A DNA stretch of 64,000 bases from Glycera tridactyla (lineage: Eukaryota), in assembly GCA_965644265.1 (NCBI GenBank), contig OZ286459.1, forward strand, positions 92,690,001-92,754,000. The letters run 5' to 3'. A model generated the notes under the pieces. That model was not told the origin of the DNA, ran no database searches, and worked only from the letters and a program-made list of their open reading frames with translations. The stretch's first letter is position 1. The number at the start of each line of letters is the position of its first letter. Of the stretch, positions 19,001 to 32,834 are shown one piece after another. Made by a program: the position numbers and the translations under genes.

Positions 19001-21437
19001 AGTGATGTACCAGGGTGCTTCACTTCCACAGTATTCTGTGTAATATCTCATATTAAGTAGGAGTTCCACATTCTATTATATCAATCTAGGTCACAATTGC
19101 CAATCATATCCCTCAACATGTTTGCTGAGTGATGTTTCATGTATAGGAATTCTTGCTACATGCCTAGTTTGATCCAATCTTCAGTGTACAGTAGTGCTCC
19201 ACCAAACAATGCAAAGATCAATTTAATTGACGATTCTGGGTGCCGATCCGATTAATCAGCACTCATTTTGGGGTTAAAAATGGCTAAAATGAGCAGATAA
19301 GCACCATTTCTCACAGGACAGAAGGAATTAATGAACACATGACGAATATTTGCCTAATGCAGATTGGTGTCTGTATAAATCTTGAAAATCTATCGAATAT
19401 TCTTGAAAAATGTGTGAGATGAGCAGCTGTATCATCATGACATCTTTATTTGAGGCATCTCTCTTGCCCAGTTTGCACGGGAATGTTGAATATCCAGGGG
19501 TTCCTACTTCAAGAAAAGACCGATCTAAGATTGATCATCATTCGCTCACCATGCTGATTAATCGATGCTGGTTTTCGGCACCGAGTCCGAACACTAGTGT
19601 ACGATCGTTTTGTCATTCATGCGCATGACATGAGAAGCTAAGTCAGATGCAGCTGACATGTATGTAATGGTTGGTGAGATGCTAATGTGCTTATTTATGG
19701 CATATGTAATTTATATGCATGGCCGGTGGGAGCCTCTTACCATACCTCATACATTGTCATTATTCCCTAACTCTGCCTTTGTAAGTCGGTGCTTGTGTCC
19801 GATTTAGCATTCCCTCTCTACCATTCATCAGACATCACTCCTTATAGCCTGTGATGATATGAAGGCCATCTTAGTCATGTAGCAGTAGTGACTTCTGTAA
19901 TCTCAGAGAGGCAATTTCCAAGAATTTTGCTGGTCTACTTTGAGGCGGTACATGAAAAAAAGATTTATTTGTACTTGAGCATGAGCCATAAAACTCGCTG
20001 AGCATAAGTCATTTCAGCCATGACATTTTTTGAGCATGAACTATTTTCAGCCACGACAGTTGTTGAGCATGAGCCATTTTCAGGCATGAAATTTGATGGA
20101 TTCGCATATATGACCTATATTCAGGAAACATTGTTATGGCTTGCCTCCACCGAGACTCACACAATGGGAATACAGTGAAAGTGGTGATGAGAGACCCTAA
20201 AAAAGAGACTGCTGTGTGAGAGAAGACCACTTTCTCAGTTTGGCATAGCCTAAAACACCCCCGATGAGAGCCCACCTGTTTTGAAGGACCATTTCCCTCT
20301 GTAGTTATTTGCTCTACGGTCATCTCAGAGGGAATTCATATCAACTTGCACTGTATATTGCTGGTTGGATTCAGCAAATTGTTTGTAATATTTGATACAA
20401 TAGTGGAGCAGATGTGTGTTGCTTATTATCTCTACTTAAAATGTGATTGAAAACCACACATGTATGTATGGAGTGATGTAACGCCAGCTTCCAACAGAAG
20501 CCAAAATCATTTACTTATTCATTTATTGTAAGCACTTTTGTACATGTAATGTAATGCAACTTACTGCTACTACAGTTGTTGTTACATCAATGTCAGTAGA
20601 ATTGAAAATGTAATACTGAGATTTAACATATTTTCTTATACCACGGATTGGTCAATATGAGTGGAATAGTGGGGTGTTGAATATAACTTGACTATTCCAC
20701 ACCCAGCTAGAACATGCGAGAACTGCGTCGGCAGCAGGAGACAATAGCGAGTTATGTGACTTTGCATTATGACGTAGAAGAGGCAGCATGGGTGCACGTC
20801 TCAACTGATGCTCTTATCGGCTGGTTCTGAAGGTAATTTCACCCCGAGTCAACTAAAATTCTGACAAATCCATGGTATGAATGTGAGAAACCACGCCCAT
20901 GAAATATGCAAGTGATATCCAGCCGTGACTCTCACCTCATTAGATATAACTTGAATATTCCACGGGCGTGGTTCCTCACTATGATATTACATGCTTTGCT
21001 TGATCAAGTGATGTCTATAATCACAGCATGGAACAGACTCTGTAAGTAATATCTACCAATGTTTTGCGATGTTTCAGGCGATGTTTGTGAAAGTTTGTAC
21101 CCCAAAGAAGCAGACTTTAATAAAACCGTTGAAGCCAAAAACAGAGATGGATAATCATGGTGTGCATGTACACATGCAGCCAGTTCACCAGGTGATACGG
21201 AGTACGACACCAACACATGAAAATACGGAGCAACATTGGGCCAAACGAGCCAATCGTATTCCGCCGACTGCCACGGGTACTCTCCCGAACTTCTCCAAGC
21301 TGGAAAAACCGGGTCAAGTCAGCAAACAAAACAAAGCCACAAATACGAAGCAGCCATTGCCAGCCATGAAAGTACTTCAGTCAAGGACTAATTTTCCTGT
21401 GACACGTAAATTCCGCCGACAAGAGGGTTGGGTATGA
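3860..21437 (+). CDS. ADAM10: ADAM10/kuzbanian metalloprotease-disintegrin, 3' part (5' exons including HExxH not found in window)
   Basis: Exons 3860-4034, 8472-8631, 11366-11470, 14272-14353, 16053-16186, 17820-17934, 18771-18905 and 21078-21437 splice in frame. The product has ADAM10 motifs [57 protein letters not shown] and [12 protein letters not shown], then a TM helix. Confidence 0.95.
4666..4869. mobile_element. MITE with 12-bp TIR; related partial copies at about 3056-3136 (inverted) and 5886-6035
   Basis: GGCTCTACATTG/CAATGTAGAGCC; shared GGTAGCCATTGGCTACCCACAGGTAGC block. Confidence 0.65.
6621..7046. mobile_element. MITE-like repeat, copy 1
   Basis: CAGTCTTC/GAAGACTG ends and AGCCACTCTC/GAGAGTGGCT subterminal inversion; diverged copy at 9549-9989. 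Confidence 0.55.
8472..8631 (+). CDS. ADAM10: ADAM10 exon: start of disintegrin domain
   Basis: ttgtag|CG CCT; [30 protein letters not shown]...AIC; AG|gtaagt. Confidence 0.95.
8661..8806. mobile_element. Tc1/mariner (pogo-like) MITE; related copy at 14423-14568
   Basis: TIR CAGTCGAACCTG/CAGGTTCGACTG with TA on both sides. Confidence 0.75.
9549..9989. mobile_element. MITE-like repeat, copy 2
   Basis: Shares TATGCAAAGTCATCTTG, AATTCACT and GAGAGTGGCTAAATTTGA blocks with 6621-7046. Confidence 0.55.
11366..11470 (+). CDS. ADAM10: ADAM10 exon: disintegrin, ends at a U12-type donor
   Basis: ttacag|T CCA; [34 protein letters not shown]; GA|atatcctt. Confidence 0.92.
12545..13072. repeat. 63-bp minisatellite, about 8.5 copies
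   Basis: ATGGCACCATGAT recurs at 12546, 12609, 12672 and so on to 13050. Confidence 0.95.
13963..14225 (+). repeat. Dispersed ~260-bp repeat with AAAC-type end
   Basis: Similar to 41703-41973; minus-strand copies at about 55615-55786 and 63690-63880; split copy around the PLE. Confidence 0.8.
14272..14353 (+). CDS. ADAM10: ADAM10 exon: disintegrin/Cys-rich junction
   Basis: gcac|T GGG; [27 protein letters not shown]; |gtgagt. Confidence 0.9.
16053..16186 (+). CDS. ADAM10: ADAM10 exon: Cys-rich domain
   Basis: ctgcag|GAA TGT; [17 protein letters not shown]...[15 protein letters not shown]; AG|gttggt. Confidence 0.93.
17820..17934 (+). CDS. ADAM10: ADAM10 exon: Cys-rich domain
   Basis: ctgcag|G TCG; [38 protein letters not shown]; |gtcagt. 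Confidence 0.93.
18771..18905 (+). CDS. ADAM10: ADAM10 exon: stalk and transmembrane helix
   Basis: atgaag|GTT GAT; [19 protein letters not shown]...[16 protein letters not shown]; |gtgagt. Confidence 0.93.
20636..20979. mobile_element. Two abutting MITE-like hairpin units (20636-20880, 20883-20979)
   Basis: TTATACCACGGATTGGTCA/TGACAAATCCATGGTATGA and GTGAGAAACCACGCCC/GGGCGTGGTTCCTCAC; both contain ATATAACTTGA. Confidence 0.55.
21078..21437 (+). CDS. ADAM10: ADAM10 probable terminal coding exon (cytoplasmic tail)
   Basis: tttcag|GCG ATG TTT GTG AAA GTT TGT. AMFVKVC completes the TM/juxtamembrane segment in phase 0; open to TGA at 21435-21437. Confidence 0.72.
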   Translation, partial: AMFVKVCTPKKQTLIKPLKPKTEMDNHGVHVHMQPVHQVIRSTTPTHENTEQHWAKRANRIPPTATGTLPNFSKLEKPGQVSKQNKATNTKQPLPAMKVLQSRTNFPVTRKFRRQEGWV

Positions 21438-21878: not shown

Positions 21879-24800
21879 CATGCGGGCAGGCATGCGTGTA
21901 TGCATGATTATTTGAGGTGTAAAAAGTTACTGGTATTCACTTCATGTGAAGAATAATGCGGATGGTTCTCAATATACTTTCAAACCTACAGATGTGAGAT
22001 TATGCTCCAGTTCTTCTCAACTCTCTCATGATCATACTGAGCCTGTCAGACAAAAGTTGACTACATGGGCTCAGCATCCAATAGCTGCAATCACTGCCTG
22101 TAGCGATGCATACATTCACACCTGGATGAAGCAGGGTACAGAGGTGCAGCTCGAAGTCAAATTCCTATGATGAATACAAAATTTGCTTAATTTGGAACGA
22201 TTGTTTAAACGATTTTGACGATGTTTCGACTCCGCCTAGGGAGTGTGGATCAAATGATGTTACATGCAATCCGTCAAAATTGTTTCAACAATTGTTCCAA
22301 AGTAAGCAAATTTTGTATTCATCATAAATCAGAAAAAGATCAATGTCATCTCTACTTCCATTCCTATGTTAGAAATGCAGATGATGTGGATCTGTGTGGT
22401 GATAATGCAGTTCCAGCATTGGATGGTCAACTTGTCAATTATAGTCACCCATCTGACAGAGAAGTTGGCTCACCGTTGGATAACACTGCAGTGTAAAAAC
22501 CAACTGGAGAATATCCTAAGGACTTGCAGCTTTTATCGGTGTTTCACAATGAGGTGCTTTCTATTGTGCTAGTATTTGCAAGCAAGATTTCATGAATTCC
22601 GATCTCACCGCAGTTTCGCCCTGAAAGGCGTGGTAGTTGTTGAAGCGAATCATTCTGCTACGATAGCATGAAAATGTGACCTCACACCAACAGTCCGCCC
22701 TCCCCAACAACAAAAATCCCCATCTTGACTGAAATTTGATCTTACGCTGATTGTAACTACATGTACTTGTAATATCAGAATAAGTGGTAGCATATGGCGG
22801 ACATATGCACATGGGTGATTGGAATATTTATCTGATGTTCTTATTTTTTGTCAATCCTCTCTGATTCAGGTTTATATGCAACTTTGTACAAACTTGTATT
22901 CTCATGACAGTGGTCGATACTATTCCATGGAATGCTGGGAAAGGGCAGAACAGAGATGCGGTATGGTGTCCCATAAGTGGATTATCAGAAATTATCACAA
23001 CCTTCATTTTGTTAAACATTTGCATCATGGTGGAAATATTACCTCCATGTTGAAAATATTACCTCGAATGTAGAAATATCACCACCATGTTGGTAATGAA
23101 TTCATGCCGTGCTGGAAATGTTTGGACCATAGTGGTAATTATTTCCAATGACGTTAGAAATGATTCCACCACAGTCGGAATGTTTGCACCACGGTGGAAA
23201 TTTGCAAAACTGGAGGTTGTAATTATATTTTTGATGTCACTTATGTACCACCATAATGTGGCGCTAAGGCAACAAAACAAACAAGTGACAGAGATGGTTG
23301 ATTCGTTGGCTTGTCAGTTTTGGGCTTGTTCTCACATCCGCTGTATGATTGCGGCATTCCATCGGATGGTATCGCTCCAGAACGGCTGGCACAATTGTCT
23401 ACATGCCACGGATTCACTCCAAGCAGTGCTGCCTCAAATATTTTTGTACACATTTTCATTTCTCGTCAGTGGCCAAGCAGTTAGACATGCCTCTATTGGT
23501 TGGAGACTGTGTAAAAAATATAGCTTTTGAGATGCATATGCTGCCTAAGATATTGACCAGAATGGGAAAGTACTATTCGCACAGGCTTGAGTCTCTTGGC
23601 GTTTACCCCCAGCTCATTTACATACCTAACAACATTATGAATGACTCCACAGTGGCAGGATAATTGTTGAACAATATAAAGTGGTCACTCAAAGATGCTC
23701 ATCATTTTGTTTGTGAAGGGATGTTATGGACTGATTTCTGTTCATTGCAGGTAATTGCTCTCCAAAGGCTCGGGCATTTATGGTTTCATACACAGATTTT
23801 GATTTGAATTCATGTGACTATCAATCAATATGGTTGCCAACATGGCTGGTTTTGTGTTGCTGGGTCATGCTTTATTGTTAAGAAAAATCCAGTTGCAGGG
23901 GGTCTTCTTTAAGCCTCATTCAATCTCAGGATGATAATACTAAATTTGCTCTCGAGAAAAGTCCTGTGATTAAGAAAAATATCAAACAGTCTCATGTAAT
24001 TTATATTCAGGGATGTGATAGTTATGTGCTTGAGCTCTCATTATCCTCACAGAATTTGAAAGAGTAGTTCTTGTTCTGCCCCAGGAAATATCAGATCAGT
24101 AGATGGAGGGAAGTGCACTATATTGATTCTCCTGAATATTTTGAGTATCCAGTAGGCTGTATCTATGCAGTGTCTTATCAGATAACTCAAACTGCAATCC
24201 CTTTCCCTCAACAGTTTTTTGTGTGGGTACAAACTGCATCAAAGTTCGCTGTCATCAGTCTATAGGAATTCTGTTCCAAAATGACATTATCATCAGATTT
24301 ATTTCCACATATGGTCTGTCCTATCAAGCTCTAAGTCAGAATGAAATCATGTTTCCAGACACACCATTGAAATGTACAAATTAGATTTTTTTTTAAATTC
24401 ATCCAATACCTGATGCTTCAATTCTTACAGTCTATTCCACTTCTTTTGTGGCCCTTGTTTTTCACGATTTCTCTGCGATAGGAACTATTTTTCTCTGTGA
24501 AATATGGGCGACATCAATTTCTGCTACTGTTGGTATATACACAACTAGTAGTCAAACCAGGTATCATCGATAAGAGAACTGTAAATAAATGCAGTCTGTA
24601 CTCATTAACCCCTGCGACGTTACGAAACATGCCACCATAAGACATCTGACCGGCAGTCATGACATAGAATGGCGGGATTGCAAGTCATCAATACATAAGC
24701 AATGTGACCAAAGTCAGGAACTCAGCAATCGTAAATAATTAAGATTGCATCACCCGTGGAAGAATGGTCACAACCAAAGTGGAATTGACTATATGTGAAA

Positions 24801-25764
24801 TGGTCTCATGTGGAGATGGTTGATGGTTTGCCTGTTTCACTATTGTTGCTTTGAACCAAATGGGTATCAGGCACACCAGTTCTGGGTTACCAGTGCATTC
24901 CAATTTCCTTGTGATGCTCATTTATCTTTTTGCTGATGCTCAAGTACCTTCAGACAACCTCATGAAAACAGCATTCATAAACATGGTAGTCATTTGATAA
25001 TTTTAAGAAATCGGATAGATTCTCGGTACTCACAGTGAAAGTTTTTGATGGTAGAAGCTTTCAAAATTCATCTGGATTCCATCTTCAGCTACTGCGGCAT
25101 TTGCTGTCGCTGTTGTGTGGAGGGTGAGCCGGCCCTGATCCCATTTGAGTGCTGGCTGGGTGGTGGTAATATGGATCGCCTCATCCATATCGGTTGGTAT
25201 CTATGATGCTGAAAGAAATGATTGCATGAGTGTATTTGGAGACAACCTCATGCATCCATTCACAATTGTAACATGAGTATTGGGACTGGATTCCACGTTA
25301 ATTACGAAATCACTTACTTTGCTGCTGCGGGCGATTACCTTCTGCTTATGTCATCAACGAACACTCGCGACACACCACACTGGTCGATTCAGAAGAATGG
25401 TGATCATAAATCATACTGTATTGGGTGAAAATGGATTGACTGTAAAAATGGAAGAAATCCATATCAAAATTATTTTCGAAAATGAATTCATGTTAAAAAA
25501 AATGTATGATAGCAGCAGTAGGTCATTTTGCCTTGGCAGCTCAGGTGATCCACGGATGATATTTTCATGATGAAATCATGTTTGAACGCCATTCCTATAC
25601 AGCCTATCGGTCAAAGAACGCTCCTGACCTGATGCATTTGCTTTGAGGGGGGGGGGGGGATAGTTCCGAGCCTTGCTTGAAAAGCATTGCTGTCAGGTTC
25701 GAGTGCTGGATTCTGGCCAGTTACATACATGTAGATATATATATATATATTTTTTTTTTTTTTT

Positions 25765-25823
25765 CGTCATTCCGAGTCTCACCTTGAGCGACGACGGACG
25801 CTTGGCCACGTATACAACATATA
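25765..25823 (+). repeat. Left terminal direct repeat of the PLE (59 bp)
   Basis: CGTCATTCCGAGTCTCACCTTGAGCGACGACGGACGCTTGGCCACGTATACAACATATA, identical to 31849-31907. Confidence 0.95.
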
Positions 25824-25867
25824 AATTTGCTGTCCGCTCGCTCATACCGACACGGAACTGACTGAAA

Positions 25868-28486
25868 ATGGAGGAGAGAGAATCGCAACTATCAGATACT
25901 GATGAAGGGTTAGACACTGAGCTCGAATCCGAGCTTAGCGACTTTCCCGAGCAAACGCAACAACTTGAGAAACCTCCCGGGACCATCAGGAAGGTGACTC
26001 GGGGGGCGCAGGTAGAGCATACGCAACGGTCCCGTGGAGACACCGATAGACGTAGCTCACACCATGCCCGTAGCCGTAGTGCTCCATCAAAATCTAACAA
26101 AAGCAACGCATCTAGGATTCGCACGAAATCACCAGAGAGGGTGAATTCGGTGAGTTTGAAGAGTAATCAGATCAGATTGAAAGTTCAAGGCGCTGTCAAA
26201 GTCAGTGAGGTCGATCCTCGCCAGACAAACAATGACAAGCACCAGAACCGAATTGATACTGTCATTACACCCGAAGAGCCGAGGGAAAACCGTAATATCC
26301 CTGCCTCGGCAACCGAGTATGATTCAGATGGGTTTAAAATGGTTGGAAGACGGTTTTGGACCAATTCCACGAGAGCCTCGAACGCGTACGCGTGCGCTGC
26401 TGGCGGTAACGCGCCCGCACACGCGTCACGCTACGCGGCTCTCGAGGAAATTGCGGAATCCACCAAAACAACCAAATCAACCAAATTGACTCCAAAAATA
26501 CCATTTTACCCATCTTACGCCAGCGTAACAAAGGGATGGCACCCCACATTCAACTATGACCACAGCCAAGCAGCTACTAATAGCAATAACAATGCAGCTG
26601 GCAGTGAGAAGCAAGATAATAAAAACCAGGGAAAGAAACTTGAAAGAAAGGATAACGTTCCCCCAAAGGGCTCCAGTGGAAACATCCATACATACTTTCA
26701 AACAAAACAAATGTCAGAAAGTAAGGAGGATACCACTAGTTCCATGAAGGGAGGAACTAGCCCTATAGCCGGGACCCCCCCAGAAGATTCCCAGGATATC
26801 CCACTAGGACAAATTCCGAGGGACTCTGATTTGGATGTAACACAAACTGACTCATCTCTGACCATAGTGTCCTCATCCCAACGGATGGTGGCAACACCTA
26901 CCCGTCGGACGAGTAAGATGGACAGTTTGGATACAATTTCCATGTCGGGTATCTTTGGCTTAGACGCCTCTCAGGTTGACCTTAAGAATTCTAACCCCCA
27001 ACAGGGAGGTAGTAAAAGAAAGAATTCAGGGAAAACCAGTACCACGAATGAAGAGCATGAAAAAAAGAAGCTAGCAACGGATCCGAAGCTAGCCTTCCAC
27101 GAGAGATCACTAGAAGCAGTTCATACCCAATCCTTGGAGGACCTCGGAAATTTATCTATATCCGAAGGTAATCCTATGGAACTGGAGGAACATACTGAAA
27201 GTGAGGAACACATTGAATCTCATGAGCCATCTAAAGACCCTGAGAATACTTTGAATTCCCCAACATCTAGGAGAAATTTGAAGATACTCAAAAACCTTGA
27301 AAGTGACTCTGACCTTGAACTTAATTTTGACCAAGGTTATTCTCATGTGTTTCAGAACATCAGCACCCGGGAAGTGGAGATCCCGGAACGAGCTACCAGG
27401 GGCATCAGACAAAGTCGTAGGGAAACGATCGCTAGTGAAAGCAAGAAACTGGCTGCCAATCACCTTACAGAACTTCGCCGCCAAGACCTGGTACCACGCT
27501 ACGCCATGGGAATGGACCCATGGCCATCCTGGCTTCCCGAAAGTGAAGAACTGAGAAGCAAACTTTTCAATCTGAAAAGAAATCAGGCACTGGACACGAT
27601 GAAGGCAGTCTCGGAATGGCTACGTGAGGAAGCCATATTGGACGAGACCGACTCGAGGGCCAGTCTTCAAACAGTTCGACATCACTTCAGAATGAATCCA
27701 AACAGTTTTGATGACGCAAAGAACATGATCAAAAGACAAGTTGCCAGAAACCTCGAGGGAAAAGAGGAAAATCTTCATCGCATGAAACGACGTCTGCAGG
27801 AAAAGAAAGTCACCAAAGAAGAGTTCATCTCAAAAATGGTGACCCCGAAAAGTGAACCGGTCCCCACAGACGACAACCGCCCGTTTACCTACCACCAGTC
27901 ACTCACAGAAGATGACCGTGAGCAACTGCTAAAAGAAAAGAAACGGAGGAGAAACAAGGCGGTCTACGAAAAACGCAAGCAGATCTACAAAAAAGCAAAG
28001 GAGATTCTGCAAAAGAAGACCACAAACGAGGATGAAGTCGTTCCGGACGAGATGCCGAACAGAGAGGAGAGTAAGAAGGGTAAAGGGACCCCAAAAAACT
28101 CACCAACATCTGCTCAAGCATCTCGGAAGGATAGACGTCCTAAGACCAGAGACGACACTCCACCAAAGTCGGGAGGCTACAACAAAAAGCAACCACAGAA
28201 ACCGACAACGAAGTGGAATCCTGGAGAGGGCTCCTCGAAGGATTTTGGTGGCGGGCTAGTCGTAGAGTTGACCAACGGACGACGAACCCCGCGGTTAGAG
28301 ACGGCGAGTGTACCACCGAGCCGCCGCCAACCAAACGGCAAACCGAGAAAAGACCAACGAGCACCAAAGAACTCGAAGGGGGAACCGAAAGAAAAGAAGC
28401 AGAAAATGGCTTCCATGTTGAGCAAGGCACTGAGCCAGATGCTCAAACAGATGGAAGACTCGGACCTGGAATCAGACGACGAGTAG
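25868..28486 (+). CDS. PLE ORF1, 872 aa: disordered Ser/Thr/Lys/Glu-rich protein with a central helical/coiled-coil block
   Basis: Uninterrupted ATG-TAG ORF just inside the left terminal repeat. No recognisable catalytic motif. Confidence 0.8.
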   Translation: MEERESQLSDTDEGLDTELESELSDFPEQTQQLEKPPGTIRKVTRGAQVEHTQRSRGDTDRRSSHHARSRSAPSKSNKSNASRIRTKSPERVNSVSLKSNQIRLKVQGAVKVSEVDPRQTNNDKHQNRIDTVITPEEPRENRNIPASATEYDSDGFKMVGRRFWTNSTRASNAYACAAGGNAPAHASRYAALEEIAESTKTTKSTKLTPKIPFYPSYASVTKGWHPTFNYDHSQAATNSNNNAAGSEKQDNKNQGKKLERKDNVPPKGSSGNIHTYFQTKQMSESKEDTTSSMKGGTSPIAGTPPEDSQDIPLGQIPRDSDLDVTQTDSSLTIVSSSQRMVATPTRRTSKMDSLDTISMSGIFGLDASQVDLKNSNPQQGGSKRKNSGKTSTTNEEHEKKKLATDPKLAFHERSLEAVHTQSLEDLGNLSISEGNPMELEEHTESEEHIESHEPSKDPENTLNSPTSRRNLKILKNLESDSDLELNFDQGYSHVFQNISTREVEIPERATRGIRQSRRETIASESKKLAANHLTELRRQDLVPRYAMGMDPWPSWLPESEELRSKLFNLKRNQALDTMKAVSEWLREEAILDETDSRASLQTVRHHFRMNPNSFDDAKNMIKRQVARNLEGKEENLHRMKRRLQEKKVTKEEFISKMVTPKSEPVPTDDNRPFTYHQSLTEDDREQLLKEKKRRRNKAVYEKRKQIYKKAKEILQKKTTNEDEVVPDEMPNREESKKGKGTPKNSPTSAQASRKDRRPKTRDDTPPKSGGYNKKQPQKPTTKWNPGEGSSKDFGGGLVVELTNGRRTPRLETASVPPSRRQPNGKPRKDQRAPKNSKGEPKEKKQKMASMLSKALSQMLKQMEDSDLESDDE

Positions 28487-31116
28487 AGAGTGAGGTCATA
28501 GACCCACACACAGACTCAGCGCCGATAATTGACTCAGAGAACTCTAACAATAGCAATAGACATTCTCGAGACAAAAATTCGACGAAAGTCAATAAAGATT
28601 CCCCCATAAAACTTTACTCAGCTTGTGTCATTGCTGTCAACCACTTGTTCAAGCACAGACTAAAGGTTTTCATTGAACAACTGAATGAGAAAGACAAAGC
28701 CATTGTGAATTTATCTGACTTCAAACTCTCTGCAGATCATGAAGCACTTCTGCAAAAAGGTCTCACCTTCTGTCCCACACCAGGTGAGCCCTCATCAGCA
28801 GAATTGCGTCGTGACCTGGATACCTTTCACCGACAAATGAAACTCAATTCATTTTTTGGGAAAGAATCGAGAGAGAATGAACAAAGGGCACAGATCAAAA
28901 AGACCAAACGGGGAGTTGTCCATACACAAACACAGGACACACCCACACCAGCACAGGGTTTTTCCACCCACTCCTCGGTTGGCCCATTTGATCACAAGGA
29001 CTTCAGTCCAAAATCCACTTGGACACCCGACAATATCCCTACAATGTTGGATTGCTTCATCTCGGTTAATGAGCTTGAACTAGCTAAAATGAAATTGAAC
29101 TCACCAGTCAGACAAAATCTGAAACAAACCGAGAAAAAAGCACTCCAAGACCTACAACAACAAAGGGACATTGTCATAAAGAAGGCCGACAAAGGATCCA
29201 GCTTTGTAATCATGAACGTAACTGACTATAAAGCAGAAGGCCTGAGACAGTTATCTGATACTAATTTTTATCATAAAACTGACAATGACTTGACGGAGAC
29301 CCACAATGCCCTCGTCCGGGACAAGATTTCTGAACTCAGAACGTATGGGGAGATAAGCTCTAATACAGAGAAATATCTCACAATTGATAGCCCACGCACG
29401 GCGCAATTCTATCTGCTCCCAAAAATTCATAAAGGACTCGAAAAACCACCAGGAAGACCGATTGTGTCTGCGAATGATTGCCCCACAGAGCGAATCTCGG
29501 AATTTGTAGATTTTTTCTTAAAAGCATTCATGACCGAGATACCCTCTTTTCTGAGAGACACAAGCCACTTCCTGTCGGAGATCGAGAAAATCGGTCAGAC
29601 ACCAAAAGGAAGCATCCTGGTGACTATGGATGTCACTAGTCTATACACAAACATCCCCATAGATGAGGGGATTGAAAGTGTTAAAAGATTCCTGAACATC
29701 CACAGACTAACTACCTCCAAGCCCCGAAATGAAAGTATCTGTGAACTACTGGGACTTACCTTACGTTGTAATAATTTTCAGTTTGACGACGAAAATTATT
29801 TACAAGTAGGAGGCACAGCAATGGGAACAAGGGTAGCACCAAGCTTGGCGAATATCTTCATGGCAAACTTTGAAGATAAATTCGTCTACCCTTATCCACT
29901 GCAACCTATCTTCTATAGAAGATTCCTGGACGACATTATTTTTGTCTGGACCCATGGTCTGGACGCCCTCCAGGACTTCGAAAAACATCTTAATGGAAGC
30001 CATCCAACCATCAAATTCACCATGGAGACCTCACCCCATTCAGTGAATTTCTTGGACACAACCCTCCATCTAGATGAAGTGGGCCATTTGTGGACAGATC
30101 TGTACAGCAAACCAACAGATAGTCATACATACCTACACCACAGATCAGCTCACCCCTCTCATTGCAAACGCAGCATCCCATACAGTCAATTATTGAGGAT
30201 ACGCCGCATTTGTAGCAGAAGGGAGGACTACACGAGACACGCCACAATCCTGTGCTGCCACTTCCTCCGAAGACAGTATCCCATGAAAACCTTGATAGAA
30301 GCTCTGAACAAAGCAACTTCAAGGACTAGAATGGAGCTATTGACAGCACAGGAAGAAAAACTAAAGTCTCAAACGACATGTTCGGAAAATGACAAAGACC
30401 AGGTCTTTCTAATAACCACATTCACTCCAGAGTTTGGTGGCATGAAAGACATGATCTTGAATCATTGGGACTTGCTAAAACGATCGACAGCGACAAAAAC
30501 ACTATCAGAATATAAAGTAGTTTTTGCCAACCGACGACCACCGAACCTACAGAGTCTATTGGTCCGTGCCCGACTACCCCAACGAAAGACGGACACACAG
30601 ACCAAACACCCATGCAGCCAATATCGGAACAGATGCACTTACCGAAAGTGCAAATTCTGTCCATTGCTGGAAAAAACAGGGAGAATTAGGAGCAACTATA
30701 CAGGCAGAGAATATAACTGTAAAAAGAATATCACCTGCCAGAGTAGCAACCTAATATATTGCATCACATGCAAAGTCGGTTCAATCCAATATGTAGGACA
30801 GACAGGCAACACTATACATGAGAGATTTGGGGCACATTCAGGTAACATTACCAGAAACAACCTCAAAGAGGATGTCAGCAGACACTATCTCTCTGACAGA
30901 CACCACGGACTCCAGGATATGAAGATTTCAGTATTAGATTTCATTCATACCGCCCCCAAAACCAGATATGCACTGACACTGAGACTCCAAATTGAATTCA
31001 ATTGGATTCAGAGACTCAGAACATTGCTACCATTTGGTTTGAACACCAAAGATAGAAGTCCTCAGGAGGTGGGATGTAGAAATTGGAGACACTATAGAGA
31101 CACTAATAAGTACTAA
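28213..31116 (+). CDS. PLE ORF2: reverse transcriptase plus GIY-YIG endonuclease (true start uncertain)
   Basis: VNLS..L...LLQKGLTFCPTP, PPGRPIVS, LVTMDVTSLYTNIP, GTAMGTRVAPSLANIFM, RRFLDDI, FLD, LYSKPTD, Cys cluster CTYRKCKFC, NLIYCITC...YVGQT, ERFGAH, PFGLN; no internal stops. Confidence 0.96.
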   Translation: MESWRGLLEGFWWRASRRVDQRTTNPAVRDGECTTEPPPTKRQTEKRPTSTKELEGGTERKEAENGFHVEQGTEPDAQTDGRLGPGIRRRVESEVIDPHTDSAPIIDSENSNNSNRHSRDKNSTKVNKDSPIKLYSACVIAVNHLFKHRLKVFIEQLNEKDKAIVNLSDFKLSADHEALLQKGLTFCPTPGEPSSAELRRDLDTFHRQMKLNSFFGKESRENEQRAQIKKTKRGVVHTQTQDTPTPAQGFSTHSSVGPFDHKDFSPKSTWTPDNIPTMLDCFISVNELELAKMKLNSPVRQNLKQTEKKALQDLQQQRDIVIKKADKGSSFVIMNVTDYKAEGLRQLSDTNFYHKTDNDLTETHNALVRDKISELRTYGEISSNTEKYLTIDSPRTAQFYLLPKIHKGLEKPPGRPIVSANDCPTERISEFVDFFLKAFMTEIPSFLRDTSHFLSEIEKIGQTPKGSILVTMDVTSLYTNIPIDEGIESVKRFLNIHRLTTSKPRNESICELLGLTLRCNNFQFDDENYLQVGGTAMGTRVAPSLANIFMANFEDKFVYPYPLQPIFYRRFLDDIIFVWTHGLDALQDFEKHLNGSHPTIKFTMETSPHSVNFLDTTLHLDEVGHLWTDLYSKPTDSHTYLHHRSAHPSHCKRSIPYSQLLRIRRICSRREDYTRHATILCCHFLRRQYPMKTLIEALNKATSRTRMELLTAQEEKLKSQTTCSENDKDQVFLITTFTPEFGGMKDMILNHWDLLKRSTATKTLSEYKVVFANRRPPNLQSLLVRARLPQRKTDTQTKHPCSQYRNRCTYRKCKFCPLLEKTGRIRSNYTGREYNCKKNITCQSSNLIYCITCKVGSIQYVGQTGNTIHERFGAHSGNITRNNLKEDVSRHYLSDRHHGLQDMKISVLDFIHTAPKTRYALTLRLQIEFNWIQRLRTLLPFGLNTKDRSPQEVGCRNWRHYRDTNKY

Positions 31117-31623
31117 GCATCTCCATCCTACACCAGAAACGCCATATAGGAGACCTCCACCCCGGAAAATTAATACATAGGGCCAAAGAAATTACCTTGA
31201 AAATTCAATAAATTTTGAAATTTCAACCTGACCCTACAATTATGCCCTACCAGCAGGTAGTTGGGGGTATCTGCCCCCATATGGATGGATAATGAATGGA
31301 CTCACCTGTGCTTGCCTCGTCTACACAACATCATATTAATCACAGTGATCCACCCATAATCCACCTCCTACACTCTGGTGCAGACATCCCCCAATTCAGC
31401 AAATAATTGGGGAATGCCGCCCTCCCAACCGCCTTGATATACATGCACTCTTAGAATCATGACACACTCAAATGTGTCTTCATGACTATAAGTGCACCAA
31501 TCACCTTTAAAAGATCTTCCTATAATTATAGGAAGATCCACCACTAGGTGGACCACCACCAGACAATTTTACAATTACCCTAATGGGATAATGTGAAACC
31601 ATTGATTATATTAACCAATCATT

Positions 31624-31868
31624 AGGTGACTGATGAGGCCCATATGGCCGAAACTCGGGATGGTACTGAGGCACAGCATACTGTAATTGGTACAATCACA
31701 CAGAACAATGGAACAAAGGGCGGTTCCAGGTTCTATGAGTCACAGTGGGATGCATCTCTAGGGATACACTAGATGTCACTATAACGACGCCTAGTGGCCT
31801 AGTGACGCAACGCCCTGTGACGTCATCAACGGCGGTTGTAAACATTTCCGTCATTCCGAGTCTCACCT
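31624..31868 (+). ncRNA. Type I hammerhead ribozyme with a 189-nt insertion in loop III
   Basis: Stem I AGGTGA (31624-29)/TCACCT (31863-68); core CTGATGA (31630-36); stem II GGCC-catat-GGCC; GAAA (31650-53); stem III CTCGGGATG (31654-62)/CATTCCGAG (31852-60); GTC cleavage triplet ends at 31862. Confidence 0.88.
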
Positions 31869-31907
31869 TGAGCGACGACGGACGCTTGGCCACGTATACA
31901 ACATATA
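31849..31907 (+). repeat. Right terminal direct repeat of the PLE (59 bp)
   Basis: Identical to 25765-25823, followed by (AT)n. Confidence 0.95.
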
Positions 31908-32834
31908 TATATATATATATATACCATTGATCATCACAGTGAGTCATATGATATGGACATAGCTGTGCCTGAACTATCAGCTTGACAACCATTCAGGTTC
32001 CTTATCATTTAGTTTACAGGGTTTGTGAGAGTGTCAAATGTCGAAGCTGACAGCACACATTCCCCACAAGTGGTGGTAAGACATTATGGTAAGACATCAA
32101 TGTGGCCAGTGTATCATGTATTATAATACTATCCATTCGCACAACTACGGCCATTTCCAGTGGATATTGGATTCAATTCAATTCAATCAAAATTTATTTA
32201 TACTCGTAATAATCATTTGAATGCATTGTTCATTATGTTCCTTTGAAAAATCTCTACCCAGGAAATTGTTTCAGCGGATGGAGTTTTGTTTGAGGGTCAC
32301 ATTGATATGCTTATACTGTCTCACACAATATTCCAGCTGTTCTGAATAACATTCCAATGTCGTTCCATGCCATGGCTTTTTGGGGAATTTTGGAACAATA
32401 ATGGACACAATTGCTTGGCGGCCAGTATTGCTGTACATCAGGTGGACATTATTGGTGCCGTGATTGGCACACCAAGTGTATTATTTATTGTGTGATATTT
32501 ATGGTGATACTGTGTTTTTACCGATACATAAATGGTGTATCTCTACTTCATTTGAAGAATTGTATGACCTTGAAGCACATTCCAGATTGAGCCAACAAGT
32601 TGGTCTCCTCGTAATGACTTTTTTGCGGTTTTTATTGTGTTGTATGGGTTTATATTGAGTGGATGCTGCTGTACCTGAGCGATTGCAGGTCCAAGTTATC
32701 ATCTCATCTCACTTGCTTTCCAATTTTTCACATTCGTCCTGAGCTTGGCAGTTTGCCAATTCTTTTCACAAGTCATCATTTTCAGTTTAAATACATTCAA
32801 AAATGGTACACTCTCTTCCTTTTATTCCAAACTA

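Follow-up and report, generated by a model that had tools for sequence, protein, structure and literature searches.

A two-ORF Penelope-like element of Glycera tridactyla with a 59-bp pseudo-LTR and a predicted hammerhead split by a long loop 3

Penelope is typically arranged as partial tandems whose upstream copy is truncated to varying extents, with a promoter in the pseudo-LTR (pLTR); the available account gives no known mechanism of pLTR regeneration (PMC2377424). Single-ORF Penelope-like elements (PLEs) with an endonuclease (EN+) have been contrasted with two-ORF PLEs that lack one (EN-) (PMC6431247), and in the Craig supplement (PMC8557442) an upstream ORF1 was found only for Chlamys of Chara, where the endonuclease is N-terminal. 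Cervera and de la Pena 2014 (PMC4209133) proposed for PLEs that RNA is cleaved, ligated to circles and reverse transcribed over more than a unit. The regeneration of PLE pLTRs and the role of the hammerhead are named as open questions in the available accounts (PMC2377424, PMC8557442, PMC11167929).

We analysed a 64,000-nt stretch of the Glycera tridactyla genome (contig OZ286459.1, positions 92,690,001 to 92,754,000), hereafter the window. It contains an intact PLE on the plus strand, with a reverse transcriptase (RT) and, at the C terminus, a GIY-YIG endonuclease (Pfam RVT_1 and GIY-YIG, above the cut-off). Judged by its sequence, it is a young, intact PLE with an extra 872-aa ORF1. The sister copies L031 and L032 show 99% identity and have both lost their 5' part; among the genomic relatives, partial-tandem pLTRs of varying length and 5' truncation are found, as in EN+ PLEs. 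ORF2 (28144–31116) is a 990-codon open frame encoding the PLE RT (motifs KGLTF, DKG, GTAMG and FLDD), a CX4CxxC linker at 30634 (CTYRKCKFC) and the endonuclease. Likeness to Neptune and Nematis rests on this linker, which fits the CX2-5CxxC pattern between RT and endonuclease, and on microsatellite targeting, with (TA)n at the 3' ends.

ORF1 (25868–28486) starts with the first ATG, which follows the left cut site described below by 89 nt, and departs from the single-ORF organization of EN+ PLEs, being separate and upstream of ORF2 in nearly all intact copies. It matched no Pfam family and gave no match in two word-based searches. Its conserved helical domain (approximately 27386–27883) carries a GxxxWPxWxP motif, and a profile search with this domain matched 160 proteins, with no known family among them. 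Weak phage-like look-alikes in Atlas were discounted. ORF2 lies in the -1 frame relative to ORF1 in the window; across families the offset is either -1 or +1, and this variation led us to reject a conserved frameshift signal linking the two ORFs. In the window family, ORF2 has no Met ahead of the conserved KGLTF motif (28144–28760; also in L032), and many sister families have an ORF2 Met about 70 codons upstream of KGLTF.

The preliminary description of this locus had reported identical 59-bp repeats 6,084 bp apart, and 25765–25823 and 31849–31907 do agree exactly. The left repeat, a very short pLTR, begins 14 nt before the predicted cut, as had been stated, with the GTC triplet at 25776–25778 on the left and at 31860–31862 on the right. 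It is also without a catalytic core, as claimed, and carries both substrate strands together with an initiator-like TCATTCC at 25767–25773. It was further said to contain exactly the ribozyme substrate: the whole 3' strand of stem III (plus one base) and the 3' strand of stem I are there, followed by some 39 further bases that the word 'exactly' does not cover. Upstream lies a 5' truncation scar (25734–25764), in which a remnant of the (TA)n target precedes a T15 tract (25750–25764), and the same scar occurs at arbitrary 5' ends. The element's 3' end, about 41–45 nt past the right cut, merges into the (TA)n remnant of the 3' junction (31903–31923). The 59-nt repeat was rejected as a target-site duplication, being element sequence common to all copies with (TA)n as the target. 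The T tract was rejected as a templated poly(T)/poly(A) tail, as it follows (TA)n at arbitrary 5' ends.

The predicted ribozyme is split. The enzyme strand (31624–31664) comprises the 5' strand of stem I, CUGAUGA, stem II, GAAA and the 5' strand of stem III, and is separated by a 185-nt loop 3 (31665–31849) from the substrate strand (31850–31868), which holds the 3' strand of stem III, the GTC and the 3' strand of stem I. Stem I (31624–31629/31863–31868) has 6 bp and stem II 4 bp, and stem III (31653–31664/31850–31861) has 12 pairs, including an A-U at the core and three G-U, and closes the loop. The preliminary description was right that there is a single 3' core: the only CUGANGA...GAAA core in the window with a stem II of at least 3 bp is at 31630–31653. 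The best substrate sites for this core within the 6.1-kb element are the two GTC sites, with 17 pairs each, the next best having 8. The conserved core, NUH triplet and three stems are those of a type I hammerhead whose cleavage is predicted, but the absent or short palindromic helix III of minimal dimeric PLE hammerheads is replaced by a long helix III and the 185-nt loop. Rfam models gave no match at the gathering score; we infer that the long loop would break them. In the window copy, the core is predicted by folding to be masked by a local hairpin (stem I probability 0.0). Both stems exceeded 0.5 in 13 of 54 variants and the core is hidden in many, so that activity may need protein, by analogy with the Poseidon element PAc of Anolis.

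Long-range pairing between core and substrate strand, as the preliminary description supposed, is conserved in the relatives, with compensatory changes among families. Among the 91 G. tridactyla loci with a 3' core, 76 have a stem I of at least 5 bp and a stem III of at least 6 bp at a distance of 20–280 nt (shuffles, 1 of 2,160), and five of the 15 loci that miss these thresholds have a 4-bp stem I. In a set of 54 variants, chosen for their pairing and mutually related, homologous positions of stem I switch among T-A/C-G/G-C and among A-T/G-C/C-G, with stem III changing in concert. Split-hammerhead elements that are more distant and have other stem sequences were seen nested in or beside two copies (L085:3773 and L146:3329, oriented coordinates).

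A search of metagenome contigs with the exact split-ribozyme pattern gave no match; a protein-led scan then retrieved relatives at 79 loci in contigs from other organisms. The split hammerhead was present in 36 of the 40 scorable loci, with a span of 138–496 nt (shuffles, 25 of 2,000, at looser thresholds), and the ORF1 domain was matched in 33 of the 79. Three loci (L206, L261 and L269) carry a short palindromic CCGGTC hammerhead, and the split form looks like this short motif with an insert in its loop. There is thus a two-ORF Penelope-like clade with a covarying hammerhead split by a 140–500-nt loop 3, present also in contigs of other organisms. The literature available for comparison yielded neither a PLE hammerhead with a long loop 3 nor a two-ORF PLE with a C-terminal endonuclease, and we regard the novelty of both the ribozyme layout and the clade as provisional.

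Loop 3 and the adjoining substrate strand contain promoter-like motifs. TGACGTCA, which we take to be ATF/CRE-like, occurs in 47 of the 54 variants of this genome, nearly always 33–45 nt before the cut (31818–31825 in the window). YYANWYY, presumably an initiator-like motif, has its A at -10 in 50 of the 54; in the window it reads TCATTCC (31851–31857), inside the 3' strand of stem III. Its C and A are kept in 53 of the 54 variants and paired in only 18 and 37, respectively. A promoter inside loop 3 is likely on these motifs. A transcription start at -10 would give an RNA whose head has only the substrate strand and whose core lies only at the far end; this matches the geometry of the preliminary description, with no need for ADAM10. 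A universal initiator at -10 was rejected, as YYANWYY falls in the last 30 nt in only 7 of 36 metagenome loci; in 21 of the metagenome loci, CAGTT or TCATT lies at -16 to -25, frequently within a small hairpin.

The window copy itself lacks the loop-3 motifs at its 5' end and is therefore probably promoterless unless host transcription reads in. ADAM-type exons do lie upstream on the plus strand, co-oriented as had been noted, with the coding sequence ending about 4.3 kb upstream: the last coding exon is at 21058–21437 (start read from the sequence) and its frame stops at 21435–21437. We take this gene to be ADAM10; a Reprolysin_2 search gave no match at the locus. An AATAAA at 24584 lies between this exon and the element. 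The preliminary description had the unit released from ADAM10 read-through; as a mechanism of the family this is ruled out, with copies spread genome-wide that have promoter-like motifs of their own. Host read-through could possibly matter for the window copy alone, with the AATAAA intervening. Elsewhere in the window, several exons on the minus strand (54233–63036) face the element and encode a repeat protein, presumably PLAT/LOXHD1-like, and at 22166–22326 there is probably a MITE, 161 bp long, whose 55-nt inverted arms are 93% complementary.

To collect copies, we queried the same genome with the element's 3' end (of 536 candidates, 40 were scored), its 5' end, a junction pattern and an ORF1 domain (150 scored of 936 candidates). 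The 107 loci analysed were drawn from 40 found by DNA searches, 100 of the 150 ORF1 matches (long open frames favoured) and seven earlier loci, a sample biased toward intact copies; junction-bearing loci with an unclear 5' end (L066, L110, L113 and L128) were excluded. In this sample, 44 insertions reach the head of the unit, 39 with a single junction and five as arrays with two or three; L138 is the start of an array and not a short copy. In one three-junction array (L091, L092 and L095, G000:C39), the units of 6,197, 6,176 and 6,187 bp are 0.1–0.2% apart in sequence. Head-to-head inverted insertions of these elements, as described for other PLEs, were seen at L118–L121, L122 and L177. The redundancy of the 39 single-junction insertions runs from 59, 111, 126, 158, 180, 208, 219 and 456 bp up to about 6.1 kb, with a median of about 1,020 bp, and the 59 bp of the window copy is the shortest among the 44 insertions. 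At many 5' junctions, e.g. L133, L135 and L171, (TA)n is separated from the truncated end by a T tract that can reach about 30 nt; these tracts are probably untemplated additions by the RT.

No 5' end among the 44 falls at the cut, and only that of the window copy lies within -16 to +5 of it. With a background of about 0.5 stops per kb, one stop in this 21-nt interval is expected by chance with P of about 0.3–0.35. Three 5' ends within 30 nt of the cut (+24, +12 and -14), with about one expected, make a weak excess. Arbitrary 5' truncations show the same (TA)n+Tn scar (e.g. L032, L033, L037, L055, L099, L106 and L133). The preliminary description had equated the redundancy with the substrate strand for a mechanistic reason, which these counts do not support; redundancy lengths compared across genomic copies show 5' ends unrelated to the cut, the outcome that it had itself named as evidence against its reading. 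Given the varied 5' ends, the chance probability and the shared scar, it is most likely a coincidence that the 59-mer matches the substrate strand. It is very improbable that the window copy is instead a complete copy of a capped, uncut transcript begun at or just before the initiator-like site, which would make its left end a start site and not a random stop. That left end precedes the initiator-like A (25769) by 4 nt, and the two further ends within 30 nt of the cut point the same way, but no other of the 44 insertions stops there, one such stop is within chance (P about 0.3), and the window was chosen for its short repeat.

Genomic head-to-tail junctions show a unit of 6.0–6.7 kb, so the unit posited by the preliminary description is real, and its proposal that copying runs past the junction is borne out: 49 of 50 junction encounters were passed, giving a 95% upper bound of 9% for stopping there. 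The 3' end lies 38–53 nt past the cut in all 80 scored copies and at the cut in none, so that the RNA on which each scored copy began ran uninterrupted through the cut site. Over the 36 nt after the cut, head and tail are the same in 31 of 41 copies; a copy's own head and tail are the closest pair in 19 of 23 informative copies, and tails of different families differ at a median of 20 of the 36 positions. Long repeats within a copy are mostly 0–1% apart and nearer each other than to other insertions. Heads and tails are thus homogenised within copies, which implies that both come from one template segment; linear uncut RNA with a separate head and tail would give two drifting lineages, which were not observed.

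These patterns bear on a distinctly unlikely reading in which arrays and long-pLTR copies are the sources, transcripts are uncleaved multimers, and the hammerhead would serve RNA turnover or cap-independent translation of ORF1. Multi-unit arrays do make up five of the 44 insertions, the upstream pLTR is where Penelope transcription begins (PMC2377424), cleavage by hammerheads in viral UTRs can promote translation (PMC13725137), and the ATG of ORF1 is the first after the cut. However, at about 0.5 stops per kb redundancy would shrink in each generation unless regenerated, the account of Penelope offers no evident mechanism for pLTR regeneration (PMC2377424), and the separate head and tail lineages that this reading predicts are absent from the comparison above. 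At this stop rate we infer that redundancy must be regenerated, and the favoured template is one head joined to its own tail, whether as a circle or through a very efficient jump.

From DNA copies, an efficient template jump and a covalent circle are indistinguishable. With a jump, the RNA would be linear, its ends held by the ribozyme stems, cut or uncut, and the RT would pass from the head to the 3' region via shared sequence, the 59 bp again being a random stop. The same seamless junctions and homogenised ends would follow, PLE RT initiates inside its template (PMC11167929), and folding gives a gain of approximately -12 to -15 kcal/mol for pairing of the enzyme and head strands even without stem I. 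We consider this reading unlikely, as the jump would have to succeed more than about 90% of the time right after initiation and on each lap (49 of 50 encounters; three laps in the C39 array), and 5' ends do not pile up at the cut or at the initiator-like site.

Our main reading, to which we give about an even chance, is that the window holds one full unit of a two-ORF PLE plus a 59-bp pLTR, the product of an RT that went once round a head-to-tail joined RNA, most likely a circle generated via the predicted split hammerhead, and stopped by chance 14 nt beyond the junction. The transcript would come from a copy with a longer pLTR, driven by the loop-3 promoter, and the single 3' core would pair both with the substrate strand at the RNA head and with the one 200 nt downstream, cutting both. 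The 5'-OH and cyclic-phosphate ends would be joined, probably by an RtcB-type ligase. The endonuclease would nick (TA)n, the target would act as primer at a short AU-rich patch about 40–45 nt beyond the junction, and the RT would continue until it fell off at random, leaving the T tract. A more specific version, tentative and rather unlikely, places the transcription start within the ribozyme, 10 nt ahead of the cut, so that the hammerhead could assemble only once the capped head had reached the catalytic strand 6 kb downstream. The one core would then decap the head, trim the tail and set up ligation, so that only full-length RNA would serve as the circle for rolling reverse transcription, in a two-ORF Penelope clade that would be both widespread and undescribed.

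Cleavage followed by circularisation, as the preliminary description had it, was already proposed for PLEs (PMC4209133), and the ligation step is supported by analogy with metazoan retrozyme monomers, which were circularised by RtcB in vitro (PMC7229834). Several observations count against a circle. In PAc, the one PLE studied in vitro, hammerhead mutants left insertion in vitro unaffected and uncleaved RNA was the main substrate, and the same report describes no RNA-seq reads ending at the cut (PMC11167929). Naiads form partial tandems and yet are reported without canonical hammerheads (PMC8557442). A ligated circle would also rebuild an active-looking ribozyme and could recut itself.

The clade described here offers a strong predicted ribozyme that looks competent as a monomer, intact young copies and a census that limits the template models, and the choice between circle and jump becomes directly testable in it. 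The split form is missed by standard descriptors and Rfam, and some 'hammerhead-free' elements may therefore carry a split one.

Compared with EN+ PLEs bearing partial-tandem pLTRs, which the available accounts describe as single-ORF (PMC2377424, PMC8557442), the window clade adds a conserved upstream ORF1 of 800–950 aa. It shares with the PLE hammerheads of PMC4209133 a type I hammerhead within the pLTR. The metazoan motifs described there have little or no helix III, act as dimers and were found with a descriptor that has no long loop 3, whereas helix III in the window clade is 5–12 bp and closes 140–500 nt. Poseidon PAc resembles it in AT-rich targets and in internal RT initiation downstream of the hammerhead, which defines the tail, but its compact hammerhead overlaps its single ORF and is dispensable in vitro (PMC11167929). 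Metazoan non-LTR retrozymes also combine a type I hammerhead with tandem copies, and their circles have been shown and are ligatable by RtcB (PMC7229834; bioRxiv 10.64898/2026.07.22.740005). Retrozymes are non-coding units of 170–400 nt with a complete ribozyme in each repeat; the window element, in contrast, is a 6-kb autonomous element.
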